This document shows positions 9,001 through 43,901 of a stretch of DNA of 59,819 nucleotides, in pieces. This stretch comes from a virus (Duplodnaviria; Caudoviricetes), in IMG/VR virus record IMGVR_UViG_3300044710_000061, positions 1-59,819 of that record. One strand, given 5' to 3'. Positions within the stretch are counted from its first letter, which is position 1, and every line of letters begins with the position of its first letter. The position numbers were made by a program, and so were the translations under genes. The notes below the pieces were generated by a model. That model was not told where the DNA came from, made no database searches, and was given only the letters and a program-made list of their open reading frames with translations.

Positions 9001-11289
9001 CTACGGAGAGCCGCCGCCGATTGTGTTGCCAGTTCCACTATTGCCAACGTTAGATGTATTGGCGGCATAGTTATTTGACTGCACGTTGTTATTGTCTGCC
9101 CCAGCCTGCAAAGCTATACCGGTCGTAAATCCTTGTAATAGATTTCCGGTGATTATGTTTGAATCTGAACCCGACGTAAGTTCAATTCCGAACGTCGATG
9201 AATTAACTGTAGATAAGAAAGTATTTCCTACAAAAGCACAAGCCTGGCAGATGCCTAAAAATCCGACACCATTAGCGTTATTGACGAAAAAATCATTACC
9301 GGTAAACGTGACTCCGCCAACCAGCGTCTGAAACAGAACGTCAGAAACAATGTTATCAAAATTAGTCCCTTGGAGTAAGGCAGACGTTAATCCCCCAGTC
9401 TCCCCTGACAATGTAGCGATCCCATACTGATTTCCAATCAAATTCGATGAATTTACCTGCAGGCCCTGCACGAAAGAACCGAATAGTATTCCATATTGTT
9501 CAAATCCAATATTCGCAGATGTAACATTAAAGCCTACAGCAAAAGTAGAACTGGCCGGAAGCCCAACGAGAGATATACCGGTACCAAGACGACCGCTTGA
9601 CCCAAAAATGGATACGCCCGGTAAGTTGACATTGGATACATTGGCAATATTGACGCCGATAGTCCAGTAATCTGTGAGCGCGTATCCGTCGTCTCCTCGT
9701 ATCGTTACGTTACTAATATCCGACAACGCAGTAGTGGCAGGGTTGGAATTTGCAGAGCTTTGATTCAAAGTAATTGCGTTGCCGCCGGATGAGGCTCCAG
9801 TCGTAAAGGTCAAGTCTCGTATATGTACCGATGACGATGGACTGCCATAATTTATGACCATTCCTCCTGACGAATTCGGCCATGTTAATATTGTATTGTC
9901 AGAACCGCTTCCTCTCAGCGTGAGAGAAAAAATTCCAGTTGGAATGGAGATTGTAGGAGATGACTGGAAAAGGTATTTTCCTGGCTGAAAATAGATGCAT
10001 CCTCCGTTGCCAGTCATTGATGCAAATGCGTTCAATAGCGGCATTGTGTTGTCTGTGGAATCATTTCCAGCGCCGCCGAAGGCCGTAATAAGGATGCACT
10101 GATTAGTGTTGTTGACAATGATCGGGTTTAGAATGTGGAACGAATTCTCAGTCGCCGAATAGATCACGGATATAGGATTGTTAGCAACGAGTTCACCTCC
10201 GCTGAGTGCTTCCGGACCCTGCGATGTATCTTTGACCACAGGAATGGCGCCAAAGCTTGAAGGATTTATCGTTGTCGCCGCCGTGTTGTCCGATAGGGCA
10301 ATGAAGTTGATGATCGAACCATCCGTGGCATTGAATCCAGGATCTACCAGAGTGATAACATTTGGAGTACCACCCGCAATGCCGGCCCAAAAAACGTTCT
10401 GCTGGGCAGATGTGTCGGTCGTCAGCTTATCCCAGACAGTGTTGCCGATCGAATCTTGCAGAACCTGACGATAGATTCCCGTGCCGTAGATCGTGGCACA
10501 GCCATTGGCATCCAGCGTCACCGGATTAGTATTGAGCACGGTCTGTGTGCTGTTCTGCCAAGTCTGCTTGAAGGTGGTGGTGTTGGGAATGTAGAAAAAT
10601 ACGTTTCCGCCGGCCAAGGCGTTGTTGATTGTGATGCTCTCGACCTGAATGGAAAAACCGCTGGTGCTGCCAATCGACTCGGAGGCGGCAGAGATGGTGT
10701 CCCCTACTTGATATTGAATGCCAGGATTGAGAATAGTCACTTGCGTGACTGCGCCACCTGACACGGTAATGTTGGCCGTGGCGTTCATACCGGATCCACC
10801 GGTCACCAGTACGCCGGCATAAGTCCCAGAGGTTCCGCCTGTACCACCTATTAGGTTTCCCAATAGGCCGAGCATGCCTGTCCCTGTAGTGGACACACCA
10901 GACACGGGAACAGAGAATCCAGTTCCGGAGCCACCCAAATTGGCGGGAGATGCCGACAGCGTATCGTTCACCGCAAAGTGGGAACCGACATTGGTCATCG
11001 AAATTGTGGCTACAACGCCGCCAGCTACGACGATCGTAGCTCGAGCTCCAAAGCCATTACCGCCCGTCAAGGGAACGTTCGTGTACGTGGCATTGGCATA
11101 GCCGGACCCACCCGTAATCGTCCCCAGGGTCGTTATTGGACCGTATAGACCACCTGACGTTGGGGTTGTGGCGTTAAAACATTGCTCGCCGTTAGGTAAC
11201 AGGGTAGCGGCGGCGTGCGCTTGCTCAAGGTGGGCGCAAAAGGCTAGAATGGCCGGTATGAGCCGTGAGGCAACTTTTCTCGTCATCAT
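9001..11289 (-). CDS. Tailspike with beta-helix body and a signal peptide
   Basis: LAGGNVFFYIPNTTTFKQTW...NTNPVTLDANG virion-attachment module; FGGAGNDSTDNT...IYFQPGKY pectate-lyase-like start; N-terminus ends AHA|A. Confidence 0.8.
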   Translation of the reverse strand: MMTRKVASRLIPAILAFCAHLEQAHAAATLLPNGEQCFNATTPTSGGLYGPITTLGTITGGSGYANATYTNVPLTGGNGFGARATIVVAGGVVATISMTNVGSHFAVNDTLSASPANLGGSGTGFSVPVSGVSTTGTGMLGLLGNLIGGTGGTSGTYAGVLVTGGSGMNATANITVSGGAVTQVTILNPGIQYQVGDTISAASESIGSTSGFSIQVESITINNALAGGNVFFYIPNTTTFKQTWQNSTQTVLNTNPVTLDANGCATIYGTGIYRQVLQDSIGNTVWDKLTTDTSAQQNVFWAGIAGGTPNVITLVDPGFNATDGSIINFIALSDNTAATTINPSSFGAIPVVKDTSQGPEALSGGELVANNPISVIYSATENSFHILNPIIVNNTNQCILITAFGGAGNDSTDNTMPLLNAFASMTGNGGCIYFQPGKYLFQSSPTISIPTGIFSLTLRGSGSDNTILTWPNSSGGMVINYGSPSSSVHIRDLTFTTGASSGGNAITLNQSSANSNPATTALSDISNVTIRGDDGYALTDYWTIGVNIANVSNVNLPGVSIFGSSGRLGTGISLVGLPASSTFAVGFNVTSANIGFEQYGILFGSFVQGLQVNSSNLIGNQYGIATLSGETGGLTSALLQGTNFDNIVSDVLFQTLVGGVTFTGNDFFVNNANGVGFLGICQACAFVGNTFLSTVNSSTFGIELTSGSDSNIITGNLLQGFTTGIALQAGADNNNVQSNNYAANTSNVGNSGTGNTIGGGSP

Positions 11290-23882: not shown

Positions 23883-23889
23883 CTTAACT

Positions 23890-29416: not shown

Positions 29417-30880
29417 TTACCGGCCTAGCCACCCTGTACCGCGATCAGCTCCGCCGCGGTTGACTTCAATCACGGGAATGCGAGGAGCCCGTGGAATGAC
29501 TTTATCCATTATCTCACGGTGCCCGCAGGCGAATGTCCGCAGCGCATCGGCGGCATGCGACGCAAAGTCATGCAACGGCGCATCACGGAATGCTTGTAGC
29601 TTATCGTTCCATTCCCGGCGATACGAGCGCAGGCAGTTCAATCCTTGCTCGCATCTGGATTCGTCAATCCAGGCTTGGTCAAGGACTTGCCGTACTGCGT
29701 TAATCCCGTCATTGACGTTGGAGACGGGTACCACGACGGGCGTAATTCGTAATCCCCTGAGAGTATCGACACGCGATTTCCCCTGATTGCCAAGCTCTCG
29801 GTGGGCGACATCATGGGGGAAGTAGTGTCGGCCATAGACCCATCCATGCTTGACTGATTTCTGGTCGAGAACACGCGCGTACTCATCAAGACCGACCCCT
29901 GATCCTTCGTGGTAATCCACGAGACGAAATTCTCGCCCAACCCTTTGGATGAACCAAATCGCCGTAGAATCCGATATGCCAAGATCCCATGCCGTATGCA
30001 CAGGGACAGTGCGGTCCACCGGGATATTGCCAATGCGTCCTTCCCTTTGTGCCCGCGTCAGATACGCGCCGTAGTAGCTGCCAACAAAGGCGCCTTCGAA
30101 CGAGCAATAATACTCCTGCTCAAAAAAGGCTTTGCCATCATCCACCCCATAAAGCTTCTGATTCTCCCGAAGCTCGGTGGCAAGCTCTTCATCCGTAAAT
30201 ACGCCGGTATCGGCAACCGTCAGAAGCTGGGCAAACCACGTTGGATCCTGTCGGGCCATGTCGTAAGTTTTACGGGCATGGTTAGACCCCCGAGGCGTGG
30301 TCTCGTAAATCACCCAGCCTTTCGATTCCGCGAGGATGGGTCGGAGGAACGCGTCAGCCTTCGGATCAGCCAAGGCCCATTCGCTAAACACAATGCCAGC
30401 AGGAGTAGAGCCGACAAGAGAGTTATAATTGTCAGACCCAACAAGTCTCCAAGTACTTCCATTCTTGAATCTTATCATCATGTCCGCATCACGCGTGCGG
30501 TCCCGTATCTCAAGCGGGAAAGCCTGGTCAATACGGCGCTCTCCGGTGTGGGGAGACACAGCGTCCCAGATTGCCTTGCGGGCTTGGGACTGCTCCGGAA
30601 GCATGTGCCAATAGTCACCCACGCGCTTCTGGGAAGCAATCGCAGCCCAATGCAGGCTGACGTCATCCTTACCGGACCGGCGGTGCCAGATGATGCATGC
30701 CCGCTTGCCGCCATTGTTTAGATAATTCCAAACTGGCAGCTGATACCGGCGCGGCTCCCAATTGTTGGGCAACCGCACCTCACCAGGTCGAGTAAGACCA
30801 AGGATACGGTCTAGCTCAGCCTTCTCGGCGTGCGTAAGAGACTTTATTAGCTCTACCGGGTCGGCGTCAGCTAGTTGCAC
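29417..30880 (-). CDS. terL: Terminase large subunit
   Basis: WHRRSGKD Walker A, FSEW Walker B, TTPRG, WDLGISDST and SHAADALR nuclease motifs. Confidence 0.95.
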   Translation of the reverse strand: MQLADADPVELIKSLTHAEKAELDRILGLTRPGEVRLPNNWEPRRYQLPVWNYLNNGGKRACIIWHRRSGKDDVSLHWAAIASQKRVGDYWHMLPEQSQARKAIWDAVSPHTGERRIDQAFPLEIRDRTRDADMMIRFKNGSTWRLVGSDNYNSLVGSTPAGIVFSEWALADPKADAFLRPILAESKGWVIYETTPRGSNHARKTYDMARQDPTWFAQLLTVADTGVFTDEELATELRENQKLYGVDDGKAFFEQEYYCSFEGAFVGSYYGAYLTRAQREGRIGNIPVDRTVPVHTAWDLGISDSTAIWFIQRVGREFRLVDYHEGSGVGLDEYARVLDQKSVKHGWVYGRHYFPHDVAHRELGNQGKSRVDTLRGLRITPVVVPVSNVNDGINAVRQVLDQAWIDESRCEQGLNCLRSYRREWNDKLQAFRDAPLHDFASHAADALRTFACGHREIMDKVIPRAPRIPVIEVNRGGADRGTGWLGR

Positions 30881-31140
30881 GTACGCCCCATAGTGAAATT
30901 AGCCGGCATAGATACTTCCGGGTTCTGGAACGTCCAGCACTGACCGCCTTGGTTCATAAACACCACCCAAAGCAGATGATGTTCCGGGCCATAGTCGATC
31001 ACCAGATACGCCAGGCCATCGCCCTTGGAGGTCTTCAAGGGCAACGGCGGGTTGAGCTGAAGCATCACTCGCTGTGCCAGCCGTTCTTGATAGCAAGAAC
31101 CAACAGGTGCTCTTTCTGCCGCTCGGCTAATGGCAGTCAC
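30871..31140 (-). CDS. Hypothetical protein
   Basis: QLNPPLP...IDYGPEHHLLWVV...CWT pattern. Confidence 0.55.
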   Translation of the reverse strand: MTAISRAAERAPVGSCYQERLAQRVMLQLNPPLPLKTSKGDGLAYLVIDYGPEHHLLWVVFMNQGGQCWTFQNPEVSMPANFTMGRTCN

Positions 31141-31329: not shown

Positions 31330-34158
31330 TCAGCACAGAGCTGCCGGTATCGTTCCGATCGCCAATAGATAGGCGTCGATAAAATGACAGGTCTGGGCAA
31401 CCTGTGTTGCCGTTAGATTGTTCCCAATGGTTGCTGCAGCAATCTGCAGAGCCGTCCCAAATCCAGCGGTGCCTGCCATATTGGCCGCCAGTATGTAGAT
31501 GTTCTCATCAGTCATCGCTGGCATGTTCGTGTAAGTATATGCAAACGCACCGTTCATATAAGTCGATATTGTAGAGCCAGACAGCGTCGTCAGAAAATTT
31601 CCCACCGACGTCGCGGGATGCGTTGCAGACAGTGGAAACCCAAAATTCGTGTTGTTCACGTTCGAGAAATAATTGATGCCGCCTGTCCCAGACGGAAAGC
31701 TAGGAGTGATGTTGGTTATACCTGCAGGAAACGGCGGGCCTCCGCCCTGTGCCCCCATGGCAAAGCCACCGGTATTAGTCGATATCGTATTGGTCAGGCT
31801 CCGTAAGGAAATATGAGCGGCATTAAGAGAGAAATTACCCGCCGCGGCGTTGGGACTAAAGCCTGTATCAATGAAAACCGTAGTGCTGCTATCAACTCCA
31901 ATATAGCCATGATTGGCCGTGAACACTGGGCTTCCATTCGGAATGGCCGTAAAGCTAGTAGAACAGAGGTTGAAGTTTGCTAGCGTGGAGTTGACCGTCG
32001 CAAAAATATAGAAAACGTCAAATGTGGTGCCGCACCAAATGCCATCATTCACCATACCGCAAATAAGATTCGAGTAGGCGTCGTGATGCACTCGATCAAG
32101 GCTCGCAACACCGCCTGCCCTGGCAAGGAACGCCGTTGCCTGAGAACAGGTGAGCGGAGGAGGCGGCTCCAGGTAGTTGAGGAAACCAATCTGGCCGGCA
32201 AAGTCCTGTGGTGTACCAATGAAGTTCGTCAGCCTGATGCCCCCCGTCTGATAGGCTCCTGCGTCTGTCGTTTGCCTGGGAAGAAAGGCAAAAGAGTGCG
32301 GGAAGGCATAGTTGATCGCAGGCGATGCAGGGAATTGCAGATGCAAATTCCCCATAATCAAACTTGATTCGTCCATAAACAGAGGATCGACATCGCCCTT
32401 GTTATTGACGGGCTGCCAGAAGCCGATGTCACCATTGAATAAGGCGACGCACGTTCCGCCTACAGCCGGTCCGAAGACAACATTGTTGAACCATTTGGTT
32501 CCTACGTCAGTGCCCCTTCCGTCACCCGCCACAACGCAGAAATTGCACGGAACGCCGGAGAAATTGCAGTCCGTCACGAGGTTCTGAGTGGCGAAGGCCG
32601 CGTTGCTGTACCAACTATTGTTATTCCCACCCGCCTCGCTCAGTTCTCCTATAGCGCCAGCCAGAAACAGATCGAGGCCATCGTGATAAAATGAGTTGTT
32701 GGCTGTCGTAACGTAATTGACGCCAAAGTTATGCATCCCACGGCCGCCGTTGAACTGCACATCGTTGAAGCTGACTAACGTCTGATGGTCTGGATAGTTG
32801 TAGGGATCGGTTCCGGTACCTCCGCATGGCGTTCCGCACCATGTATCGTTGATGATGCCATTGCCGTCCGTATGTCCCGCACCGGGGGCGATGAAGTTCA
32901 AACTCGCCCCAGACTGTGTCGTGAGTGTCGGACGCGTCACCGTGGCTGTATTGCCGGTTATGGAGCTGATATACGTGAACGGTTGGACGCCGGGTCCGGT
33001 AATGAGAACGCCTTCCCCAAGTGTAGTCGATGTCAGCGCGCCGCTGAATCCGGTCGGATAGACAACGCTTATGAAATAAGTGCCATTTCCGCCCGTACCG
33101 GTGGTTCCACCCGTCCCGTACGGATAGATAAACGTAGTCTGGAATGTTCCAGCGCCGAAAATCTGGTCGCCTGGCGAGATGGTGCCCGTGATCCCGGTCA
33201 CTGTCAGAATCTGCATCCCAGAAGATATGGACCCCGTAAAGCTCGCCGAGGTACCAAGACTGGCAATGTTGTCTATCGTCGTCGAGCTGTGGGTGTTTGC
33301 TGTCGTTACGAACGTGTTGAGAATGCCAAGGCACACCGTGCAACCATTGTTAAATACACGGTTCCAGGACATCATATTGGTGAACGGAGCGAAGGCGAGA
33401 TCGGCTGTAGTCGGCGTATATGGCGGATATGGATTGAGGTTATCGCCGAGACGCTTGAGAGCAACCAGACCTATACCAGAGCCTTCAAACTGATCCGTAA
33501 ACGCGCAATCCGACGCGTTATTATGGATCATGAAGAAATATTCGCTGTCACTCAGACCGATGCAGCCAATGCCGCATCCGTGCACATTGTTGTTTAGAAT
33601 CCAGATGTGATGTCCGGTTCCGCCGAGATCATTTAGGCCTGCATCAAAGCAGGCCGTAGCGATCCCGCCATACATGAACTGCTCGCCGCCATCGACGTCG
33701 AAACCGTCAATGATGAAATATGGCTTGGTGAAGCCGATCACCGCCTGTCCGTTGGACCCCATAAAGATTCCATCGAACAGAATGAAGCATTGGTCGAGTA
33801 CTTCGCAGCGATAAGTTACGTACCCGGTAGGAGAAGCCTGATTCCCACCATTCTGCGGGATAAAAGCCTGCGTCCACGTATAGGTGCCCGGCGCAACGTT
33901 TATACAGTCTCCGGGAGACCGCGGATTGGCATCAGCGTGCTGGATTGTCTTCCACGCCGTGCCAGAGCTCAGGCCATTATTCGCGTCGTTGCCGGTCGTC
34001 CCGTTTACGAAATAGGACACCGAGCAGGTATATAGCAGCCCAATGCCGCCGCTATAAGTCTGATTGGCAAAAGCCTCCGGACTAGGCCCAGGAGCCTCAG
34101 CAAAAGCTGAGACAATCGACAGCAGCAATGTGACTGTGAAGGCGATTATAGGTTGCAC
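31330..34158 (-). CDS. Exported beta-helix (pectin-lyase-like) protein with a C-terminal lectin-like domain
   Basis: Signal peptide ending AFA|E; YFVNGTTGNDANNG...AWKTIQHA...PGDCINVAPGTY; many Cys. Confidence 0.75.
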   Translation of the reverse strand: MQPIIAFTVTLLLSIVSAFAEAPGPSPEAFANQTYSGGIGLLYTCSVSYFVNGTTGNDANNGLSSGTAWKTIQHADANPRSPGDCINVAPGTYTWTQAFIPQNGGNQASPTGYVTYRCEVLDQCFILFDGIFMGSNGQAVIGFTKPYFIIDGFDVDGGEQFMYGGIATACFDAGLNDLGGTGHHIWILNNNVHGCGIGCIGLSDSEYFFMIHNNASDCAFTDQFEGSGIGLVALKRLGDNLNPYPPYTPTTADLAFAPFTNMMSWNRVFNNGCTVCLGILNTFVTTANTHSSTTIDNIASLGTSASFTGSISSGMQILTVTGITGTISPGDQIFGAGTFQTTFIYPYGTGGTTGTGGNGTYFISVVYPTGFSGALTSTTLGEGVLITGPGVQPFTYISSITGNTATVTRPTLTTQSGASLNFIAPGAGHTDGNGIINDTWCGTPCGGTGTDPYNYPDHQTLVSFNDVQFNGGRGMHNFGVNYVTTANNSFYHDGLDLFLAGAIGELSEAGGNNNSWYSNAAFATQNLVTDCNFSGVPCNFCVVAGDGRGTDVGTKWFNNVVFGPAVGGTCVALFNGDIGFWQPVNNKGDVDPLFMDESSLIMGNLHLQFPASPAINYAFPHSFAFLPRQTTDAGAYQTGGIRLTNFIGTPQDFAGQIGFLNYLEPPPPLTCSQATAFLARAGGVASLDRVHHDAYSNLICGMVNDGIWCGTTFDVFYIFATVNSTLANFNLCSTSFTAIPNGSPVFTANHGYIGVDSSTTVFIDTGFSPNAAAGNFSLNAAHISLRSLTNTISTNTGGFAMGAQGGGPPFPAGITNITPSFPSGTGGINYFSNVNNTNFGFPLSATHPATSVGNFLTTLSGSTISTYMNGAFAYTYTNMPAMTDENIYILAANMAGTAGFGTALQIAAATIGNNLTATQVAQTCHFIDAYLLAIGTIPAALC

Positions 34159-35993
34159 GGCTTCGTCACCAAATCGACCCGCTCAAACAAATTTGTCCCG
34201 TCATACCAGAGTGGAACGATTCCCTTCAGGCGAGAAGGATACAGATTGAATATCGCACCGCTGCTAACGCACGTGACGGAGGGCAGCTGATAGCCCTTTC
34301 CAGCGCAGTGAGTGCAGCTAGGCGTGAGATCGGAAATGACCGAGGGCGTCGTTAACGTGCTCGTGTTGGCGTTCCAGCCCATACATCCGGTTACTACGAT
34401 GAAACCTGCGCAGTTCGGCGCCCCCGACTGATTTGCCAGCAGGTCCGTCGTATTCGTGAAACCCGGGCTTCCGGTGAAGTTCGTACCGGCAGAAGCTCCG
34501 TTGAACAGGCACTCGTCATTGCCTGACATTGGCGCATTCAAAATGTTCTCGTTCCCCGTGGTTCCGATCGTAATATTGGCCAGCGAGGACGGTCCGCTCA
34601 TTCCACCCAGCAAAAGACCGCAGGTGTTGCTCTGCGCCGCATCGGCAATGTTGTTAATAACGAGGAACGTAGGCGCGCCGGGGTTGTCCATCTGGATGTT
34701 GATGTCGCCCTGGCCGCCAACATTGCTTGTATTGGCGTTGAAGCTGGTGTTGTTCTCCACGAAGTCGTGCAGCGCGCCAACGTTATTGAAGTTCTGCATA
34801 AAAATCTGGATTCCGAACCGATAGGCGCTCCAGCTGATGTTGTTGAGCATCACAGACTGGTTGACGACTCCATGGGCATCCCATGTGTCGAACATGAAGT
34901 TCTCAATGTCCGAAGCGCACCCATTATTTGGCTGATTGTAAGAAAACCCGCCGTACATCATAAAGTGTGTGCCGACATTCGAGTCTATCGAAGCAGGACC
35001 GGCCATAACGGTCGCAGCAGTGCAAACTGTGTTCTGCTCGGAATTCTGAGTGATGTTGGCAATGTAGTAGGTATAGTCAAAGCCTGTGGCGCCTGGAACG
35101 TCGTGGCTCATTCCGTTGTCGAGGCCACCAAGCCCTATCCCGACATTGAAGATCACGTTGTTAATAAACGCTATGTCATGAACCGTTGCGGCTGACCCAT
35201 CGGCCACCATGGCCCCAGTGCCAGAATTCCCGTGTACTTGCCAGCCTTCAACCGCCCAATTGCTAGATGTCACGTCCATGGCCCAGCCGGCGCCGGTAAA
35301 CGTAATGTTGCAGGAGGTGAGATCGCTTCCGCCGCACAAAAGCACCGCGAAATACACGCCTCCGGTTCCATCAATGCCGCCAGACGTCGATGGGCAATTG
35401 GAGATGGTGCCGAAATTTCCAAACCCGTTCCCTGAATAATTGCCTGCGCTGGCTATAATCACGTCTCCGCAGCTCAAGGCGTGATTTGGACTAGCCCATG
35501 GTCCGTGACCGCCCCCGCTCGTCGGGGCAAGGCCATCGTTTGAATCGCTGCCGCTCGTGGATATGTAATGAAGCACATGGCTGGTCGGCAGGCTAAACGC
35601 AACATTGCCGCTGCTCGATGTGAATGTCGTGCTTGGCGATGTCGCTGACGCGGTATTCGATCCGGTTCCGGTTACTGCCAGCGTTCCCGTGCATGCGCTT
35701 GCTGGTGTCGTAAACGTAGCGCTCCAAGTTCCACCACTTGCTGAGAACCCACTTACCGTGGACGAGCCCGAGCAACCACCGCCATATGTGGCGGCCGTCA
35801 ACCCGGATGGAGCGGCCACCGTGTATGTGCCGCTACCGCTGGTCGTGGATGACGTGCTCGCATTGGTAAGAGACGTGAAAGCCAATGTGGGACTAGACGA
35901 CGCCGTCTGGTTCAGACTTCCCTGGAAAAATGCCTGCGGATATGCCGAACCAGTCAACAAGCAAAATGCTAGCGTTACCAAAAACCTTAGCAT
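34146..35993 (-). CDS. Exported beta-helix protein with a Ser/Thr-rich N-terminal domain
   Basis: Signal peptide; YISTSGSDSNDG...PW...CGDVII motif; many Cys. Confidence 0.7.
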   Translation of the reverse strand: MLRFLVTLAFCLLTGSAYPQAFFQGSLNQTASSSPTLAFTSLTNASTSSTTSGSGTYTVAAPSGLTAATYGGGCSGSSTVSGFSASGGTWSATFTTPASACTGTLAVTGTGSNTASATSPSTTFTSSSGNVAFSLPTSHVLHYISTSGSDSNDGLAPTSGGGHGPWASPNHALSCGDVIIASAGNYSGNGFGNFGTISNCPSTSGGIDGTGGVYFAVLLCGGSDLTSCNITFTGAGWAMDVTSSNWAVEGWQVHGNSGTGAMVADGSAATVHDIAFINNVIFNVGIGLGGLDNGMSHDVPGATGFDYTYYIANITQNSEQNTVCTAATVMAGPASIDSNVGTHFMMYGGFSYNQPNNGCASDIENFMFDTWDAHGVVNQSVMLNNISWSAYRFGIQIFMQNFNNVGALHDFVENNTSFNANTSNVGGQGDINIQMDNPGAPTFLVINNIADAAQSNTCGLLLGGMSGPSSLANITIGTTGNENILNAPMSGNDECLFNGASAGTNFTGSPGFTNTTDLLANQSGAPNCAGFIVVTGCMGWNANTSTLTTPSVISDLTPSCTHCAGKGYQLPSVTCVSSGAIFNLYPSRLKGIVPLWYDGTNLFERVDLVTKPCNL

Positions 35994-36736
35994 CCAACCC
36001 CCAGCAAAGACCTATTCGCAAGACACGTAACGGCGCCTGGTACCTTCAGCGTAATGGCCCAAGCGTCAAAAGCGCCGCTTCCCTGCGTCGCGGTCGCCGT
36101 GATCGACGCAGTGGTAGACGTCACTATGTGCTCGGAGAAATTTCCGTTCGTCGTCAGGCCATTCCCCGATGCGCCGTCGGGAGTCCAGCCAGCTCCTTGG
36201 CTGTTGGCCGCAGCACCGACGTTGGATATCAAATATCCAAGCCCTATCTCGGTAGAAGAGGCCAGCGTACCCGTCGCGCCGCTACTCATTGCAGTTCCGG
36301 TCGTACCACCAGCTTCAACAGCCTTGTCGAAGGACGGCGTAGTCATGCCGGTGATTTCCCAGCATACTATCTCGGTAAAGCTGCCTGGCGTGGCTGAAAA
36401 ATGAGCTGTGAATGTCGTGACGCCCGTGGTCACCGTGAAAAAGGCGGCCATAGCGCTGCTGCCGACATTGCCGATAATCGTGCCCTTAGATGAATTAGTC
36501 GGAGTATCGCTGCTGCCATCGGTAAACGTAATCGATGTGACGGTGCCGCCGTTCGAATCGGAATTGGCTCCACAAGCGACAACACTGCCGGCAAGCGTGG
36601 CGGTTAGCGTGACCGCACGCGTTGCCGCGCCAGCGCCACCAGCCGTCTTGAATTGACGGACCGCAATGACTGCCTCGGCATTGGTGGCGCCGAGCAGAAC
36701 AGAGATAAGGCAGGCTAGTCTAAGTAGGCGCGTCAT
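35987..36736 (-). CDS. Exported beta-sandwich protein
   Basis: Start MTRLLRLACLISVLLGATNAEA|V with ATGA overlap; ends RSLLGVGC. Confidence 0.7.
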   Translation of the reverse strand: MTRLLRLACLISVLLGATNAEAVIAVRQFKTAGGAGAATRAVTLTATLAGSVVACGANSDSNGGTVTSITFTDGSSDTPTNSSKGTIIGNVGSSAMAAFFTVTTGVTTFTAHFSATPGSFTEIVCWEITGMTTPSFDKAVEAGGTTGTAMSSGATGTLASSTEIGLGYLISNVGAAANSQGAGWTPDGASGNGLTTNGNFSEHIVTSTTASITATATQGSGAFDAWAITLKVPGAVTCLANRSLLGVGC

Positions 36737-39072
36737 TGCTGCGCCAACACAAGCGTACCAGCTACGCGGCCAGATCCGCTTTGAAGAAGGCACACGTTGT
36801 TCAAGCTGGTTAGCGAGCCGGCCGCTACAGGCGCCGCGCCATTGCCTAGTGTAAGACCGCCGTTAGCCGCGAAGTTTGGTCCATTGGCTGCGGTCGTGCT
36901 GCCAATGATTGCCGCTGGCGTGGTGGCACAAACGGTGCCCGTTCCCTCAACGAGGGAAACGTTCTCAGCATCCGCGCCCACAACCGCGATCGAACAAACG
37001 TAGTTCTTCTTGGAAGAGCCGCCGAGAGACGCAAGTTGCGTACTCGCGGTTTGGCTGATCGGAATATAAGAGATCGTGCCGGTGATACACGGATTGGCGA
37101 CTACTGCAGTGCCGTTAAACGATGAAAAATCGGTGAGCAGACCACGGGCGGCCGTGATGCCGACCGTACAGGAATGACCGGTGACGCATGCCGTGGCCCC
37201 GCCCGAAGTGAACTGCCCGGCAATCTGCGAGGATACCGTGGTGCCAGCGGTGAATGTGCCTGCATCCGCGGTTATGCCCCAACTCGCAGCCGTACCCGGA
37301 TTGGCAAGGATCGGCGTCATGGACGCCACTCCCTGGACAGTGAGGACATTGGCAGACGCAGAGCCGGCCGTACCTGGCGCAGAGCCTGCAATGGTCGTCG
37401 TGTCCTGTCCTACGGCTACACGTTCGGAACCTGTTCCAACCGCTCCAGCGCCCGTCAGAATGGTTACGGCGTTGACCTGCGCGAGATTCGTTGAAATTGC
37501 GCTTTGGTTGCTTGCGATCGCAACCGGAGAGCTGTTGGCCATCGTGGCTTGGCCATTCGCGTTAGCATTGGTTACGAACGCATTAACGCCGATCACTTCT
37601 ACCGCGCCGGGACTTGTCCCATAATTGGATGGCGATCCGAGGGCTGACCCTGCCAGCTTGTTAAGATTGACGAAAATATTGCGATCGTTGGTCAGCTGGA
37701 CTGCGCCGGCCTGACCTGACGTAAGATTGCTGATCGCACTATTGAAAATGCCGCCAATCGCCGTAAACGATGTCGTTCCCTGCGTGAACGTGCCCTCATC
37801 GGCAAGGCTTGATCCACCAGAGCTCGAGCATCCTGTGACGCAATTGATCCTTAGATTACCGGCCGTATCCAAGGATAGCGGATCAGTCTGCGCTGTGGTG
37901 TAAGTTGGCGCACCTGTCGTCACAGCGCCCATAATCAGGTGACCAGTCTGCCCTGACGTCGTGGACGCTATCGCCGCATTGGTTGGCTGAAGAGCCGACG
38001 TAGATGCCCCCGTGGGCAGCGGAAGAGAAGCTGCGCTGATCGCCAGCGCAGTCATCGACGCTATGCCCTGAACGGTCACGACATTTGTCGAAGCAGTGCC
38101 GGCCGTGCCCGGAGCGGATCCGGCAATCGTCGCCGTATCAGTTCCAACCGCTACGCGCTGGGAACCAGTGCCAACCGCACCTGTTCCCGTCAGGACAGTA
38201 ACGCCATTTACCGTGCTGGTGTCGGTAAGAAAGCCGCGCCCAGAAGTAATGCCGACCAAGCACTGATGGCCCGTGACGCAAGCCGTGGCGCCGCCGCTTG
38301 TGAATTGGCCGCCGGCCGGCGCAAATGTGGATGTGCCCGCGGTAAAAGTGGCGGCATCTGCAGCGCTGGCACCGGAGCCCGAGCAATTCGCGCACTGGAC
38401 ATTTAGATTGTTCGATGTCGAGGCGATGACGTTGCCAGAACCATCGACTATTTGGGTCTTCTGATTGGCGTTCGTCTGATTGGCCGAGGTGGCCAGCGCG
38501 GACGTGTTTAGATTCGTTCCAGCATTGGCTGTGACGCTGCCACCGGTGTTCTGCATCGGTGTTCCAAGCGTCGTATTAATCGTGGTGAGTGTGCTATTGC
38601 CGGTCGTCTGAAGCGCAGACGTCGCCGCTCCGGTGGGCAATGGCAGGGCGGACGCGCTCACGGCAAGCGCCGTCATCGAGGCAATGCCTTGCACCGTAAG
38701 GACGTCTGTCGATGCCGTACCAGCCGTGCCAAGCGCCGGCTGTTTGGCGGAAGTCGATGCCCCGGTAGGGAGGGGAAGAGAGGCTGCCGTTATCGCGACG
38801 CTATTGTTCGGGCTGACTGCCACCACCATCGCGGGATCTGTCGCGCCAGCGGCAGTGCTCGCCGCCTTGACCGCGGCACATTGAGCCGCTGCGGTGCCAT
38901 CGCAAATACCGTTCATCCAAACGAAATTGCCTGACCCGTCCGTAATGACATCCCACGTATGGGTGGCACCGGACGCGTCCTTACCAGTGACCGTGCCGGC
39001 GCCGGCAAACGCGTCCGTGGAGAACAGCCCGCATAGAGCGGCGAGAAGCACCAGCCTACTGAGCGTCAACAT
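36733..39072 (-). CDS. Exported repetitive fibre-like protein
   Basis: Signal peptide ending AFA|G; internal repeats LPLPTGA(S/A)TSA, GTAGTAS-x-VLTVQG(I/V)ASMT and GQFTSGGATACVTGH. Confidence 0.75.
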   Translation of the reverse strand: MLTLSRLVLLAALCGLFSTDAFAGAGTVTGKDASGATHTWDVITDGSGNFVWMNGICDGTAAAQCAAVKAASTAAGATDPAMVVAVSPNNSVAITAASLPLPTGASTSAKQPALGTAGTASTDVLTVQGIASMTALAVSASALPLPTGAATSALQTTGNSTLTTINTTLGTPMQNTGGSVTANAGTNLNTSALATSANQTNANQKTQIVDGSGNVIASTSNNLNVQCANCSGSGASAADAATFTAGTSTFAPAGGQFTSGGATACVTGHQCLVGITSGRGFLTDTSTVNGVTVLTGTGAVGTGSQRVAVGTDTATIAGSAPGTAGTASTNVVTVQGIASMTALAISAASLPLPTGASTSALQPTNAAIASTTSGQTGHLIMGAVTTGAPTYTTAQTDPLSLDTAGNLRINCVTGCSSSGGSSLADEGTFTQGTTSFTAIGGIFNSAISNLTSGQAGAVQLTNDRNIFVNLNKLAGSALGSPSNYGTSPGAVEVIGVNAFVTNANANGQATMANSSPVAIASNQSAISTNLAQVNAVTILTGAGAVGTGSERVAVGQDTTTIAGSAPGTAGSASANVLTVQGVASMTPILANPGTAASWGITADAGTFTAGTTVSSQIAGQFTSGGATACVTGHSCTVGITAARGLLTDFSSFNGTAVVANPCITGTISYIPISQTASTQLASLGGSSKKNYVCSIAVVGADAENVSLVEGTGTVCATTPAAIIGSTTAANGPNFAANGGLTLGNGAAPVAAGSLTSLNNVCLLQSGSGRVAGTLVLAQQ

Positions 39073-39757
39073 AGATGCTGTCTCCAGTCGTGGAGCATGT
39101 GGCGTAAATCGCGTCTGACGGAACCAGCGGATAATAGCGCGTGAACGGCTGGCCAGGGTTGAGGATCAATGCCGCCATTCCCGCCTGGACCGTGTTTCCG
39201 CCAATCGTGAAATTTGTTGATGTCGTTGTCGTTCCAGGAACAATCTGGCTATCTATGTTTGTCCCGAAAACCAGATAGCAGACGTCAGTGCCGCTGATCT
39301 GATTGTTCTGGATTGTAAGAGACTTGCGGGTACCTGTAGCTAGGATCGTCTGGAACGTGAGCCCGGTAGTTACCGTTACTGCGTGATTGACGGTCGTTGC
39401 GGCGCCAGCGCCTGGGGTTGTAACACCCGCATAGACGCCCTTTAGGGCCGCAATGACTGTGGCATTCCCAGATCCCGTAAAGGCCGTGTCGCTTGTTGTT
39501 CCGAGGTCGGGATTACGCGTGACCAGCGCCGGATCAGTCTGCGCAGCAGCCGTCGAAGCCGCCTTAACTGCCGAACACTGAGCAGCCGCGGTTCCGTCAC
39601 AGACGCCATGTTCCCAGACATAATTGCCGCTACCATCGGTAATGACATCAAACGTGCGGGTAACGCCACCGGCATCCTTGCCCGTGACCGTCGTACTACC
39701 AGCGAAGGCAGGTGAGGCAAGGAAAACTAGAAGCGCGGCGGCGCCAAGCCATCTCAT
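39056..39757 (-). CDS. Exported protein, paralog of the N-terminus of 36733..39072
   Basis: Signal peptide ending PAFA|G; shares TVTGKDA...DVITDGSGN.VW..G.CDGTAAAQC.AVKAASTAA. Confidence 0.75.
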   Translation of the reverse strand: MRWLGAAALLVFLASPAFAGSTTVTGKDAGGVTRTFDVITDGSGNYVWEHGVCDGTAAAQCSAVKAASTAAAQTDPALVTRNPDLGTTSDTAFTGSGNATVIAALKGVYAGVTTPGAGAATTVNHAVTVTTGLTFQTILATGTRKSLTIQNNQISGTDVCYLVFGTNIDSQIVPGTTTTSTNFTIGGNTVQAGMAALILNPGQPFTRYYPLVPSDAIYATCSTTGDSIYVDAQ

Positions 39758-39996
39758 TTTTGAGGCTCTTGGCCCTTCGGCTGGTCAGAATTGTCCTTGT
39801 GCTCGACCACTTCCATCGCCGAGTTCAGCTTGTTCAGCAGATATACCGTGATCGGGGCAACCTGGATGCCCTCGGACTTCGTCGCGCTGTCTAAAACGCG
39901 ACGGAGCGCCGTTTGCTCCTGGTCATTCAGGATGATCATCACGTCTTTGGCGCGCACCGATGTCGAAAGAGCTATCAGAATAAGCAAAATCCTCAT
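39754..39996 (-). CDS. Small exported helical protein
   Basis: MRILLILIALSTSVRA|K. Confidence 0.65.
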   Translation of the reverse strand: MRILLILIALSTSVRAKDVMIILNDQEQTALRRVLDSATKSEGIQVAPITVYLLNKLNSAMEVVEHKDNSDQPKGQEPQK

Positions 39997-40226
39997 TAAC
40001 CACCCATCCAAGCAATGTTGCAGCCACTTTGTGAAAGGTCAGTCCCGCCGAAAGCACACGTAGATGACGAGGGGCACGGCGCACCAGAGTCGCCAATCGT
40101 CAGCGCATCAATCCAAACCACGCAATTGCCCGGCGTAATCGGGCCTTGAATGCTGAAAACCGGCGTTTGGGCTTCAGTAATGGTGGCAGGAATCAGAGCC
40201 AAGGCAGCGGCCAGTAACGCTTTCAT
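39996..40226 (-). CDS. Small exported Cys-rich protein
   Basis: MKALLAAALALIPATITEA|Q; ends DLSQSGCNIAWMGG. Confidence 0.65.
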   Translation of the reverse strand: MKALLAAALALIPATITEAQTPVFSIQGPITPGNCVVWIDALTIGDSGAPCPSSSTCAFGGTDLSQSGCNIAWMGG

Positions 40227-40423
40227 CCACCCATCCATATGATGTTGCACCCAGCAACCGAGAAATCGAGCTGTCCATCCCCGCACGGTGTCGGCGGCGT
40301 GCCGCCACCAGCCCCTTGCCCCACAAAGGTCGTCAGCAATTGGCTGTTGGCCACTTGACTCGGAATTGCCGCAACGAGCATGCCGAGGACCACCGCAGCG
40401 GCCCTAAAGAGGGCTGTTGTCAT
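40223..40423 (-). CDS. Small exported Cys-containing peptide
   Basis: Signal peptide; ends DFSVAGCNIIWMGG. Confidence 0.6.
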   Translation of the reverse strand: MTTALFRAAAVVLGMLVAAIPSQVANSQLLTTFVGQGAGGGTPPTPCGDGQLDFSVAGCNIIWMGG

Positions 40424-40847
40424 AGTAGACAATGGCCTGAACGGCGGACCCAGCAGTCGTGTTTATGCACAAATCATTGCCGGGAGGCGCCTCTAGCCCA
40501 CGGAATACCGAAGAGTTGTCCGCAATGCCGCTAATCCCGGTCACAGTGCCCCACTGATAGGCCGGCGTAATCTTCGTGGTGCCGGTCCCGCAGTTCGTGC
40601 CCGTGCCATAGATCAGACTGACGTTTACGGAACCCGACGATGAGGCAAAGTTAAACCCGCACACAAAAATTGCCGTACCAGTACTGACCACAAGGCGTGT
40701 GGCGCCGTTCGTACTCGCATCATAGATGACCGACTTGCCGCACGTGCGTTGCGTCGTGGTGCCCTGCGCTGCCACCTGGCCGGGTGCGAGTAAGCCAAGC
40801 AGCAGCGCGAGAGCCAAGAGCCGTAGCAGGCTAGAGGGGGCAAGCAT
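40404..40847 (-). CDS. Exported beta-sandwich protein, paralog of the C-terminal domain of 36733..39072
   Basis: Signal peptide ending VAA|Q; FVCG...NVSLIYGTGTNC matches YVCS...NVSLVEGTGTVC. Confidence 0.7.
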   Translation of the reverse strand: MLAPSSLLRLLALALLLGLLAPGQVAAQGTTTQRTCGKSVIYDASTNGATRLVVSTGTAIFVCGFNFASSSGSVNVSLIYGTGTNCGTGTTKITPAYQWGTVTGISGIADNSSVFRGLEAPPGNDLCINTTAGSAVQAIVYYDNSPL

Positions 40848-40870
40848 GTTGCGGCTCCTGTCGGGAGATA

Positions 40871-41563
40871 TCAGATGTACCGATACCAAGTTGTGTTAGC
40901 CACTTGGTAAATCCAACATGCTGACGTCAGGACATACGTTGCCGAACCAGTGGTAACCTGAACACCCAATGTGGTCGGCGTGGTGCCCCCAGCAAATACT
41001 TGGCCAGACGTGCCGGCATTGACCGCGGTCAGCGTAAGAATGCCAGTGCCTGCGTTATCAATGCAAAACGTCTGATTCTGCATCGGATTGGGAGGCAACG
41101 TGATTGTCGCAAACGTTGCTGAGCCAGCGCCCGTGTAAATGTACTTCTGAATACCGTTGGCAACGACAGGGTTCTGCCCTGTTCCGGTCGTGGAATTGAT
41201 GACAAACCCGCCGTAACCGGTGCCGAGCGCCGTGACGGGCAATACTGCAGTCTGCGCGCCACCATTAGGCTGAGCCGTGCCGGGCGTATTGATATCAACC
41301 GGAACTACCTCGGTACCAACCAATGCAGGCGGCCCAGCAGGCTCCGTCACGGTGCAAATAACGTTCCCGGTAGTGGCATTGGCTGCCGCAGGCGTGCCGC
41401 TTTGGCCGGTAATGGTCTGCTGAGCTGGGCCTACAATATTGCTGCCAGAACAATAAGCAGCACCGCCAATAATCGGCATCGTCTGCCAGAGGCCACCGCC
41501 CCAGGCTAGCCCACCTGCAATGCAAACAGCCGCGGCTGCGGCAAGATATTTTGTCAACTTCAT
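40871..41563 (-). CDS. Exported structural-like protein
   Basis: AAGGAG SD, MKLTKYLAAAAAVCIAGGLAWG; C-terminal TITLPPNP...WYRYI beta domain. Confidence 0.7.
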   Translation of the reverse strand: MKLTKYLAAAAAVCIAGGLAWGGGLWQTMPIIGGAAYCSGSNIVGPAQQTITGQSGTPAAANATTGNVICTVTEPAGPPALVGTEVVPVDINTPGTAQPNGGAQTAVLPVTALGTGYGGFVINSTTGTGQNPVVANGIQKYIYTGAGSATFATITLPPNPMQNQTFCIDNAGTGILTLTAVNAGTSGQVFAGGTTPTTLGVQVTTGSATYVLTSACWIYQVANTTWYRYI

Positions 41564-41598
41564 GGTTCGCTCCTTGCTACAGCCGGCGTATGCCGGAA

Positions 41599-41784
41599 TT
41601 ACCATCCTGTCGGATCGATGCTTTTGGGGACGGGAGGGCATAGCATGTTGGCTATCGCCTTCACGCCTTTGAGCTCTCGTAGCCGCTCAATCTCATTGGC
41701 AGCCTCTTCGAGAAGATCAGCGCTATCGAGTAAGTCGTGCTCATCTTCGATGCTGCGCAACCGCTCAACGATATCAGTCACCAT
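41599..41784 (-). CDS. Small coiled-coil protein
   Basis: DIVERLR...EAANEIERLR motif common in small phage genes. Confidence 0.55.
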   Translation of the reverse strand: MVTDIVERLRSIEDEHDLLDSADLLEEAANEIERLRELKGVKAIANMLCPPVPKSIDPTGW

Positions 41785-42050
41785 TCCCCTCCCCAGCCAC
41801 CGCCGCGACCGCCCGTATAGGCACGATTGCCACCGCCCCAACTCCAGTCATAGCCGCCGCGAGGCGCATAAGACGGCGCCGGCCTCGGGGCGTAATAGCG
41901 CGGCGGATAATGCTGCGCGTAGCGCTCGGCATAGTGCCCGCCGCCGGCATAATAGCCTCGCCCAGGATAGGCATGGCCCCCGTAGTATTGGGCGCTGGCG
42001 GAAACGGCACTCATGGCAATCATAAAGGCAGCAACTGCAAGTCGCATCAT
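41778..42050 (-). CDS. Exported Tyr/Gly/Pro-rich peptide
   Basis: MMRLAVAAFMIAMSAVSASA|QYYGG. Confidence 0.6.
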   Translation of the reverse strand: MMRLAVAAFMIAMSAVSASAQYYGGHAYPGRGYYAGGGHYAERYAQHYPPRYYAPRPAPSYAPRGGYDWSWGGGNRAYTGGRGGGWGGEW

Positions 42051-42223: not shown

Positions 42224-43039
42224 TCAACCATTCTCCCAAAGACGGCACCATCCCGAGCGCCTAATATCCTGCACAAGAGAACACGTCGGGCTTGTCATGT
42301 GGTCGCTGTACTCGCACGTGTGGCAGAATTCAGGCTCGTGGCCCTTCCGGTAATTCGCCTCGGTATGCGTCAGCTTGTTGTCGAGCTCGCCCCGCAATAG
42401 CTGCGTATGCGTCCGGAAAAGCCTTATGCCGCCCGGTGGCTCACCTTCCTTCGTGAAAGTCTCAACATCCACGTTGTGGCTAATCGGCTGCCCTAGCGCC
42501 TGCCAAGCCCTCAGAAGGCTATCCACGCGCAAATGAGATACGATGAGCACCGATTTGCCAGGATGTTTCGCAATCGCCTCATAGAGGCCCTGGAAGGCTC
42601 TGCGCTTGAACTGATTGAAGCTCTCTCCTTCCGGTACCGGCCTATCAGGCTTCTTGGTGTAAGCCGCTATCTGCGGCCCGGCCATGCTCATCGGCCGATT
42701 GGTAAGAATCCCCAGACCCCAAGGACGCAACTTGGCAGAAGCTCGTGGCTCCACATCCAGAATGCGCCCAATAATCTCTGCGCTCTCCTCAGAACGCGCC
42801 AGGTCAGAACAGCATATCGCCCCTATGCCCTTATCCTTGAGCTTCAGAGCGGCCTGCCTAGCATCCTCGGCGCCTTCCGCCGTGAGGGGGCATTGGCTCC
42901 AGCCACGCTCGCGATCGACAGATGCGGCCGACTCCGAATTGAGGATGGTCGCCCCATGCCGGGCAAGATAGAACGAGACCTCCGCCCCTTGCTTTGCCCC
43001 TTCTAGTATTTCCTTGCGGGAGAGTTCAGCCCGCATCAT
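42224..43039 (-). CDS. Histidine phosphatase fused to a HiPIP-like Cys domain
   Basis: RHG, SDLxR, GES and VSH phosphatase motifs; C-terminal CHTC-x9-C-x9-GWCRLW. Confidence 0.75.
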   Translation of the reverse strand: MMRAELSRKEILEGAKQGAEVSFYLARHGATILNSESAASVDRERGWSQCPLTAEGAEDARQAALKLKDKGIGAICCSDLARSEESAEIIGRILDVEPRASAKLRPWGLGILTNRPMSMAGPQIAAYTKKPDRPVPEGESFNQFKRRAFQGLYEAIAKHPGKSVLIVSHLRVDSLLRAWQALGQPISHNVDVETFTKEGEPPGGIRLFRTHTQLLRGELDNKLTHTEANYRKGHEPEFCHTCEYSDHMTSPTCSLVQDIRRSGWCRLWENG

Positions 43040-43568: not shown

Positions 43569-43901
43569 TCATTTCCTGTCCTTGCCCAGCAATTGCCTTA
43601 CCGCCTCAATCCGGTCCGCATCAGTAATGCCGCCGATAATAACCGTGGTGTTGTTCGCCGGCCGGTCCTCGCCATGATCGACCTTGCGCGCGTGGATGTA
43701 GGGGGCTGAAGACTTCGCCATATCAGCCCGAAATGCCAAAGGCTGATCTTCGTCTTCCATCAGCGACAACATAAATTCAAGCGGCGTCATGCGAGCGCTA
43801 GCTACCGCGGCATCAAGCCTAGCCCTAACCGCCATCGTTTTTCTGTTTGGCGTTCCTTTTTTTCGGCCGCCTCTACGCTCGCCCGGCTTTGATCCAGGCA
43901 T
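43569..43901 (-). CDS. terS: Terminase small subunit candidate
   Basis: PGERRGGRKKGTPN, TPLEFML and A-x-x-x-APYIH motifs. Confidence 0.65.
   Translation of the reverse strand: MPGSKPGERRGGRKKGTPNRKTMAVRARLDAAVASARMTPLEFMLSLMEDEDQPLAFRADMAKSSAPYIHARKVDHGEDRPANNTTVIIGGITDADRIEAVRQLLGKDRK

Follow-up and report, generated by a model that had tools for sequence, protein, structure and literature searches.

A cassette of leader-bearing genes between terS and terL of an uncultured P22-like soil phage, and a possible periplasmic route for its spikes and fibres

Tailed phages are assumed to fold and assemble their virion proteins in the cytoplasm. In this study, we analysed an uncultured tailed phage, IMG/VR virus record IMGVR_UViG_3300044710_000061, in which eleven consecutive genes between the small and large terminase genes (terS and terL) begin with Sec-like leaders. 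The window, that is, the whole stretch of DNA analysed, has 59,819 bases and is the entire virus record; matches in PHROGs and Pfam identify it as a complete P22-like temperate soil phage. We tentatively favour the idea that the receptor-binding or depolymerase-like proteins of this phage may be exported, oxidised in the periplasm and joined to the particles at lysis.

Several described systems resemble parts of this locus. P22 tailspikes are added last in assembly, and can complete spike-less heads in vitro. In P22-like and related podophages, the annotated tail spike of Xanthomonas phage PBR31 and the tailspike-slot ORF of Pseudomonas phage PAE2 share with g762, the tailspike-slot gene of the window, a place after the ejection proteins, a divergent C-terminal half and an N-terminal domain with the motifs LLPNGxQxF ... 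YxPGTxTxKxTWQD ... NTNPxxLD. These cultured examples start with Met directly before the domain, whereas g762 and 118 of the 150 best matches to its domain carry an A-x-A leader of about 25-30 residues together with a Cys pair. The proteins of the terS-terL block, in contrast, show no similarity to those tailspikes. The virion proteins pIII and pVIII of filamentous phages have Sec leaders, and pIII is disulfide-bonded in the periplasm. Filamentous phages, however, assemble at the membrane without lysis, whereas portal, coat, terminase, endolysin and ejection proteins mark the phage of the window as tailed. An integrated filamentous phage was rejected as the source of the block, because the window has no replication, assembly ATPase or secretin gene of that type and leaders are present on all 11 genes. 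Morons and lysogenic-conversion genes (lambda bor and lom, P22 gtrABC) are accessory envelope-protein genes in or beside late operons, and vary among close relatives. The block resembles them in presence and absence among close relatives, since the sibling phage G004 is without the genes from g69 to g942. However, each moron, whether one gene or a small set, has its own promoter and terminator, whereas the block has 11 translationally coupled genes in 10.7 kb, lacks an excess of promoter or terminator signals, and has a content that resembles receptor-binding proteins.

Two cellular systems and one spore system are also similar. According to the available part of its report (PMC7949094), Pantoea stewartii WceF has a tailspike-like architecture with a P22-tailspike-like head domain behind an export signal, and acts on the exopolysaccharide of its own producer. 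WceF differs in being chromosomal, in an exopolysaccharide cluster and with a Tat signal, whereas the genes described here form a phage late-operon set that includes fibres and has Sec-type leaders. The MAT fibres of Bdellovibrio bacteriovorus, as the available part of PMC10769870 describes them, begin with a signal peptide and a beta-rich, conserved N-terminal domain, continue as a long fibre akin to the tail fibres of phages, and end in tips that vary. They are encoded by genes of a cellular predator and have been shown on the predator surface; their N-terminal domain has about 130 aa, compared with about 60-80 aa in the domain shared by the block proteins g779 and g233, and the likeness lies in architecture and, within the noise range of the tool, in the fold of the tip. 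The Bacillus endospore appendage proteins Ena1B and Ena2A are the top fold matches of the g779 tip, and g147 is a stand-alone copy of that tip with a short Cys-bearing N-terminal extension. In the Ena proteins, however, identity is 10-13%, rmsd is 6.3 and 5.8 Å, the DUF3992 Pfam model does not match, and the appendages belong to Gram-positive spores. In open-access full text (subscription journals and supplements not included), among it the available parts of PMC10975493, PMC9144972 and PMC8566455, we found no description of tailed-phage tailspikes or fibres that are exported by Sec.

The leader-bearing block between terS and terL

The block comprises eleven co-oriented minus-strand genes (31330-42050, 10.7 kb). 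The genes and their two borders are as follows; Cys counts are those of the mature parts.

43569..43901, minus strand: terS, small terminase, upstream border of the slot (phrog_641, E 2.7e-6; phrog_15261, E 5e-13)
41778..42050, minus strand: g100, small Gly/Tyr/Arg-rich protein, leader MMRLAVAAFMIAMSAVSASA followed by QYY, 0 Cys, no PHROGs match
40871..41563, minus strand: g230, exported-type protein with leader, 4 Cys, a block member kept by relatives
40404..40847, minus strand: g147, stand-alone copy of the g779 C-terminal jelly-roll (hhalign), leader, 4 Cys
40223..40432, minus strand: g69, small leader-bearing protein, 2 Cys, C-terminus CNIIWMGG
39996..40226, minus strand: g76, small leader-bearing protein, 4 Cys, C-terminus CNIAWMGG
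39754..39996, minus strand: g80, small leader-bearing protein preceding the fibre genes, 0 Cys
39056..39757, minus strand: g233, leader-bearing protein with a g779-type N-terminal domain after the leader, 4 Cys
36733..39072, minus strand: g779, repeat-rich fibre-like leader-bearing protein with a jelly-roll tip, 14 Cys
35987..36736, minus strand: g249, leader-bearing protein, 4 Cys, 98% identical in the second strain L003
34146..35993, minus strand: g615, leader-bearing protein, probably a right-handed beta-helix, 16 Cys
31330..34158, minus strand: g942, leader-bearing protein with a beta-helix N-terminal third and a conserved C-terminal domain (about residues 660-940), 22 Cys
29417..30880, minus strand: terL, large terminase, downstream border of the slot (phrog_2 and phrog_2472)

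A sequence-only reading of the window had proposed this operon of overlapping, signal-peptide-bearing genes. Each start that it listed is a real start codon of an open minus-strand frame (42050, 41563, 40847, 40423/40432, 40226, 39996, 39757, 39072, 36736, 35993 and 34158), and from g147 through g942 neighbouring genes overlap by 1-29 nt. PHROGs matches agree with its identification of terS, terL and portal and with the distance of 12.7 kb from terS to terL. The nearest cultured match of terL is that of Acetobacter phage phiAX1 (51.6% identity), and Rhizobium and Bradyrhizobium phages come next. A small terS-like ORF adjoins terL directly both in phiAX1 and in Bradyrhizobium phage ppBjS10J-1.

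The second strain, L003, has an identical gene order from g230 to portal. Furthermore, contigs of the independent soil run X2 (about 96-97% identical) span the terL-g942 junction and the stretch from g76 to a histidine phosphatase gene upstream of the block. Because the order is the same in L003 and the X2 contigs bridge both junctions, the arrangement is not an assembly artefact. The phage recurs in soil metagenomes, and none of the runs listed with this stretch is of RNA. Synonymous and non-synonymous codon differences between the window and L003 were 117 and 3 in g779, 55 and 3 in g942, and 36 and 3 in g615; for comparison, terL had 126 and 18. Thus, these three genes are under purifying selection, and the excess of 117 synonymous over 3 non-synonymous differences in g779 shows that the genes of the block are real. 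The G+C content of the block is 58-59%, compared with 52-55% in its surroundings. Promoter-like sites numbered 5 in the block against 10.6 expected from shuffles, when the sigma-70-type consensus was the only one considered, and terminator-like sites 15 against 16.6.

Leaders were called by a crude heuristic of our own (hydropathy, charge and the residues at -3 and -1) together with reading by eye. The N-termini of the block proteins have a basic or short n-region, a hydrophobic core and then a small-x-small site; the cleavage-site motifs are AFA, AEA, AFA, AFA, VRA, TEA, VAA and ASA. The rule was positive for 8 of 9 called genes in the block and, in the rest of the genome, for 6 of 79 (Fisher p 4e-7), a count that omits g80 and g100, which the greedy gene caller dropped. 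The only called block gene missed was g942, which fails the K/R criterion alone (no Lys or Arg in its n-region), and its full-length relatives have clear leaders with basic n-regions. By eye and by rule together, Sec-like leaders, which the sequence-only reading had assigned to every gene with mostly A-x-A-type sites, were recognised on 11 of 11. Coat and portal, two of its proposed negative controls, were negative under our own rule, which is not SignalP; so were terL, hub and ejection proteins. No twin-arginine motif and no lipobox were seen by eye in the window leaders; therefore, export through Tat and lipoproteins were both rejected.

Mature Cys residues are abundant, as had also been noted: nine of the eleven proteins hold 2-22, and every count in the block is even. 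Portal has 1 Cys, coat has 3, and the four largest ejection-region proteins have none. Leaders persist in relatives of the block proteins at 30-70% identity while the leader sequence itself drifts. The simplest account of these patterns, and very probably the right one, is passage through Sec with cleavage of the leader and disulfide formation in the periplasm, and the export that the earlier reading had proposed is thus well supported, at the level of sequence, by leader conservation and by the co-occurring Cys-rich mature parts with even counts.

The proteins of the block could not be assigned to described families. Ten of them have no Pfam, PHROGs or NCBIfam family and no PADLOC family (0 among its anti-phage defence models), and Pfam gave only sub-threshold rows for them (E 0.018-0.09); g100 was scanned against PHROGs only. 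Searches by sequence of g942, g615 and g779 against solved structures gave nothing meaningful, and g779 had no match in 50,697 GenBank phage records. The claim that the block represents an undescribed system is consistent with the absence of a described family among the ten genes scanned.

The most informative protein is g779. Its relatives number at least 3109 among 8000 scored candidates, and nearly all are unnamed and without Pfam domains; one is labelled Roseiarcus sp. Among the best 119 relatives, 91 are leader-bearing by our rule. In these 91, the median is 10 Cys and 88% of the counts are even, whereas in the other relatives the median is 5 and 54% are even (Mann-Whitney p 1e-6); the clearly leaderless ones have 0-2. 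Thus, cysteines and leaders occur together in this family. On viral contigs, we read 14 of 20 distinct g779-like ORFs as leader-bearing; the six leaderless ones open with a short motif common to ordinary phage tail genes. One leaderless example stands in a Saccharimonadales metagenome-assembled genome (MAG), where it adjoins leaderless fibre-like genes. A scan of the genome contigs with this single protein gave 5 loci of the g779 family.

An AlphaFold model of g779 had a mean pLDDT of 56, with about 94 for residues 656-779; residues 24-60 were weakly usable. Residues 656-779 form an eight-stranded jelly-roll in the model. Its top fold matches were Ena1B (7a02; Z 8.6, rmsd 6.3 Å) and Ena2A (9i0y; Z 7.9, 5.8 Å), and TNF/C1q-like tips, BclA, the Bdellovibrio Bd2133 fibre tip and phage cement proteins gave Z 6.5-7.7. 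Because other jelly-rolls score within 1-2 Z of Ena, only the fold class of the tip is established. In BFVD, the jelly-roll matched uncharacterised or virion proteins of about 110 aa from uncultured Caudovirales. The small protein g147 aligned with the g779 family over the same part (hhalign probability 96.9%, E 1.7e-10; residues 34-143 against 664-777), and g233 shares the other end, since the N-termini of g233 and g779 after the leader are 68% identical over 78 aa. CxxCxGxG-like knots such as QCANCSGSG were observed in g779 (residues about 185-282, window 38400-38520) and in its relatives P0012 and L008:9770-12856. They match DnaJ zinc-finger, Anti-TRAP and BSD2 Cys-rich models weakly, and may be disulfide or metal knots along the fibre.

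For g942 and g615, no Pfam match was obtained at E ≤0.1. Relatives of g942 match PF22842 (Pel9A-like), PF07602 (DUF1565) or PF13229 (Beta_helix) over its N-terminal third, and the wider beta-helix family to which they belong typically has 16 Cys. The C-terminal domain of g942 recurs in contigs L004 and L013 and in a Microcystis phage. Language-model leads for the two proteins span 0.82-0.92: those of g615 are Beta_helix, Pel9A-like, DUF1565 and NosD clusters (0.90-0.92), and those of g942 are beta-helix and LamG proteins. The mature parts had been described as fibre, beta-helix or beta-sandwich proteins. This description is supported in part: the jelly-roll at the C-terminus of g779 was found, and a beta-helix is suggested for g942 by its relatives and for both g942 and g615 by language-model leads.

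The remaining members of the block are smaller. In the complete genome G001, the same slot encodes a leader-bearing protein of 478 aa that matches the N-terminal part of g230 at 37% identity, and a 76% homologue of g230 is present in G004. The C-termini of g69 and g76 are 60% identical across 20 aa. Their shared end CNI[IA]WMGG is encoded by TGGATGGGTGG (window 39994-40010 and 40224-40240). Because TGGATGGGTGG stands directly before the start codons of g76 and g80, its conservation may reflect a coupling or ribosome-binding element as much as the peptide. We regard g80 as a candidate periplasmic helper: a 42% homologue lies immediately upstream of the fibre gene of contig L009, and leader-bearing genes of 60-85 aa occupy its position in L008, L013, L016 and L039. 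The C-terminal half of g233 is kept in L012 and L016, immediately upstream of their fibre genes, and in contig L005 a leader-bearing gene of about 240 aa, known from position only, follows the fibre gene as g249 does in the window. The stretch of g76 is replaced in a variant strain of soil run X3. Variant strains in other soil runs have a 12-nt insertion at the g779/g249 junction (window 36734) and, in the g80/g76/g69 region (39952-39994; 40197-40221), replacements of 143 and 180 nt.

Leaders in the tailspike slot

The block is not the only place in the window where leaders occur. The following genes lie in the tail slot.

9001..11289, minus strand: g762, tailspike-slot gene with PHROGs matches to tail fibre and virion structural proteins, leader MMTRKVASRLIPAILAFCAHLEQAHAA followed by ATLLPNGEQCF
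8769..8993, minus strand: g99, small leader-bearing protein downstream of g762
7201..8634, minus strand: g508, leader-bearing protein downstream of g762, 10 mature Cys

Because these genes (7201-11289) represent the same phenomenon, the boundary drawn around the block by the sequence-only reading was too narrow. g762 stands after the ejection proteins. In four related contigs, a homologue stands in the same slot with a clearer leader and an invariant mature start; identity is 59-73% over about 390 N-terminal residues, and the C-terminus is divergent. The g762 leader itself has an Arg inside its hydrophobic part. The C-terminal part of g508 is kept in contigs L015 and L036.

We compared the mature N-terminal region of g762 with 1.84 billion cluster representatives and obtained 5499 matches at E ≤0.001. 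In the best 150 of these, the motif LLPxGxQxF stands behind a leader of at least 17 residues in 118, usually with AQA or AAA before it and with its Pro mostly at position 25-37. The motif follows the initiator Met straight away in 8; 3 are intermediate, and in 21 the motif is absent from the first 90 residues. A Cys before the F of the motif is present in 88 of the 118 leader forms and in 1 of the 8 direct forms (p 8e-4), and its partner Cys, in LD..NGC, in 81 of the 118. Without a leader, the same domain begins the annotated tail spike of Xanthomonas phage PBR31 and, in Pseudomonas phage PAE2, a 669-aa ORF that follows the ejection protein. Thus, g762 corresponds in slot and in sequence to leaderless tailspikes, and the Cys pair accompanies the leader.

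The two sets of genes differ in these respects. g762, g99 and g508 are inside the tail slot, whereas the terS-terL block is outside it; and g762 is homologous to the particle-binding end of tailspikes, whereas for the block proteins no such similarity was found (0 PHROGs matches). No leaderless receptor-binding candidate was found in the window or in the complete genome G001. Because the tailspike-slot gene is leader-bearing as well, export appears to be a habit of the whole phage lineage. Structure prediction did not add to this comparison: the AlphaFold model of g762, from a 5-row alignment, had a mean pLDDT of 31 and was not used, and the complex prediction of the hub protein with g762 residues 29-395, made without controls, scored 0.00, which is no evidence either way.

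Turnover of the block and possible roles of its products

Related phages use the same slot with different content. L008 has four leader-bearing genes immediately upstream of its terL and portal homologues. L013 has nine in the same place, preceded by a Wzy_C membrane protein. G001 (59.3 kb) has two leader-bearing genes, flanked by a terS-like gene on one side and by the gene preceding portal on the other. Clusters similar to the block were found in L004, L009, L012, L016 and L039, and the order that recurs is a leader-bearing gene of about 110-170 aa, then one of 60-85 aa, then the fibre gene. According to its ORF list, L005 has a leader-bearing g779-like fibre gene and a second leader-bearing gene among siphovirus-like head-tail genes.

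The closest comparison is the sibling G004, in which terL and portal are 96.5% and 95% identical to those of the window. Its slot contains the phosphatase gene, the g230 homologue and a g147-like gene (34%), and is without the 9 kb from g69 to g942. This absence indicates that the block is an accessory, swappable cassette, like receptor-binding modules and morons. Such a difference in cassette content between phages with nearly identical terL and portal is turnover of the kind seen in receptor-binding genes. Between coat and hub, G004 (L046:245-7742) has three large genes, of 752 aa, 742 aa (with a leader) and 788 aa; on sequence comparison, these three genes have no counterpart in the window, so that the interval is a second cargo slot. 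In phiAX1 (L001), the leader-bearing PhiAX1_440 and PhiAX1_450 (21866-22831 and 22835-24760) also lie between coat and hub; the available part of the phiAX1 paper (PMC8566455) reports no proteomics.

Wzy_C (PF04932, O-antigen ligase/polymerase) proteins head the leader clusters at L013:983-2050, L004:6513-7643 and L039:7685-8821 (E 3e-7 to 4e-13), that of L039 scoring 30.8 bits, just below the Pfam cut-off of 31.7; no Wzy_C was found in the window. Such a protein could act in the polymerisation or ligation of envelope glycans, or could attach O-glycans to the exported proteins, which are rich in Ser, Thr and Ala.

From these observations we propose the following scheme. The cassette would supply receptor-binding and depolymerase-like proteins: a long repeat fibre with a jelly-roll tip (g779), a shorter protein sharing its N-terminal docking domain (g233), two beta-helix proteins rich in Cys (g942 and g615), the stand-alone jelly-roll g147 and several small helpers. 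Its genes would be expressed together with the late genes, and the products would pass Sec, be cut by signal peptidase I and acquire disulfides in the periplasm. Meanwhile, spike-less particles would be built in the cytoplasm, and the folded spikes and fibres would wait in the periplasm until the holin opens the inner membrane at lysis; particles and spikes would then meet, in the step that concludes P22-type assembly. Extra side fibres or spikes supplied by the terS-terL cassette would widen or change the recognition of host glycans.

The sequence-only reading had proposed a multi-subunit appendage that would either join virions at lysis or form a fibre or adhesin on the cell surface, and these two fates still lead among the readings. 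Attachment to particles is favoured for several reasons. The positional and sequence counterpart of a true tailspike is leader-bearing in this lineage, and cleavage would recreate the N-terminus of the leaderless forms. Moreover, g779 and g233 share a docking-type domain (68%), as proteins docking at one site do. Finally, the tailspikes are the last part to be added in P22, and heads can be completed with them in vitro. In its widest form, which we offer with slightly more reserve, the proposal is that a large group of uncultured tailed phages may build its receptor-binding apparatus outside the cytoplasm, as Sec-exported, cleaved and disulfide-bonded spikes and fibres fitted to finished particles when the holin opens, with the terS-terL cassette as a plug-in set of fibres and periplasmic helpers. 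In phages that carry a Wzy_C gene, these spikes and fibres may be glycosylated as well.

The consequences would be considerable. Each receptor-binding-like protein in this lineage, the tailspike-slot gene included, has a predicted cleavable export signal, and both families that were searched deeply are very large (more than 3100 matches for g779; 5499 representatives for the tailspike N-terminal domain). Should the proteins be carried on virions, phage assembly would include a final step that crosses a compartment boundary, and spikes stabilised by disulfides would be common among soil phages, with a bearing on host-range prediction, depolymerase discovery and phage engineering. If they are not on virions, phages carry sizeable secreted arsenals against host glycans, and which protein recognises the host is then an open question.

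Several points weigh against attachment, and most of them suit the best of the alternatives, in which the proteins are exported and never placed on virions. These would be free or envelope-bound glycan-active proteins, made late in infection, that cut or mask host O-antigen, capsule or exopolysaccharide in the periplasm and after lysis; the phage would benefit because progeny do not stick to debris, superinfection is blocked and the matrix around neighbouring cells is cleared. The N-terminal third of g942 belongs to a bacterial "parallel beta-helix repeat" family, mostly leader-bearing with about 16 Cys, which fits a free secreted enzyme. Within the structural module of phiAX1, the leader-bearing PhiAX1_450, annotated as cycloisomaltooligosaccharide glucanotransferase and thus glycoside-hydrolase-like, resembles a free enzyme. 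Wzy_C at the head of three related clusters points to work on envelope glycans, and the absence of the 9 kb from G004 shows that the block is dispensable for building the particle. WceF provides a precedent: in the available part of PMC7949094, this exported tailspike-like exopolysaccharide hydrolase keeps a P22-like head domain and is not a virion part. Furthermore, the block proteins have no similarity to known particle-binding domains detectable with Pfam, PHROGs or GenBank phage records, and the leader test is our heuristic rather than SignalP. However, free enzymes leave unexplained why the sole tailspike-slot gene has a leader in the window and in four relatives, and give no account of which protein recognises the host; long repeat fibres with a shared docking domain are also unexpected for soluble enzymes. 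We consider this alternative less likely than attachment, and the strongest of the others.

A lysogenic-conversion island is less probable again. In this explanation, the prophage would express surface fibres or adhesins like the Bdellovibrio MAT fibres, which would alter the adhesion, aggregation or phage receptors of the lysogen. In favour are the integrase of the phage (PF00589), the accessory nature of the block among nearly identical phages, and the G+C content of the block (58-59%), which exceeds that around it (52-55%). The succession of leader, conserved N-terminal domain, fibre and variable tip is the architecture of MAT fibres in the available part of PMC10769870, and the fold of the g779 tip matches that of Bd2133 (Z 6.6-6.9, within the stated noise range of the tool). 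In contrast, the genes overlap tightly in a late operon between terS and terL, neither promoter-like nor terminator-like sites exceed expectation (5 against 10.6 and 15 against 16.6), no gene for crossing the outer membrane is present, and the same slot is occupied in several related phages.

It is very improbable that the hydrophobic N-termini are membrane anchors, mis-called starts or a composition effect on ordinary cytoplasmic proteins: although leaders were called without SignalP, that of g942 is without Lys or Arg and that of g762 has an Arg within its hydrophobic part, the starts fit upstream stop codons with overlaps of 1-29 nt, leaders persist at 30-70% identity despite sequence drift, A-x-A directly precedes a conserved mature N-terminus equal to that of the leaderless forms, and the leader is accompanied by even Cys counts and by the Cys pair.

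Other genes of the window

The remaining genes named in this report were assigned with PHROGs and Pfam, unless stated otherwise, and are as follows.

57546-58457: tyrosine integrase (PF00589)
42224..43039, minus strand: histidine phosphatase (PF00300, E 1e-25), no leader, a context gene in the slot and outside the exported set
30871..31140, minus strand: g89, small ORF overlapping the terL start, no leader, 100% identical in L003
27173-29416: portal
22420-23679: coat gene, 39% identical to the annotated coat protein of phiAX1
18173-19696: hub protein, head-closure Hc3 family
16268-16948: ejection protein
11510-13840: ejection protein with a cell-wall hydrolase domain
5041-5598: GH108 endolysin

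A terS homologue, 60% identical, occupies the same place in G004. The small ORF g89 has no PHROGs family. In G004, an 89-aa ORF abuts terL in the same place as g89; it had no blastp match to the window set, which excludes g89. Near the lysis region, two further leader-bearing proteins were observed, of 240 aa (MKKLLLATSFALASWSAVAADLP...; window 3596-4318) and 122 aa (window 5923-6291), both without a Pfam match. Upstream of terS, a protein like g100 is encoded at 44055-44369 and has no PHROGs family; both leaders end in ASAQYY, and both mature parts are of Gly/Tyr/Arg/Pro-rich low complexity. The histidine phosphatase, which stands between terS and the block together with a few small ORFs, is 92% identical in G004, and the N-terminus of a gene among the ejection genes of contig L044 (4646-5317) resembles it by eye.

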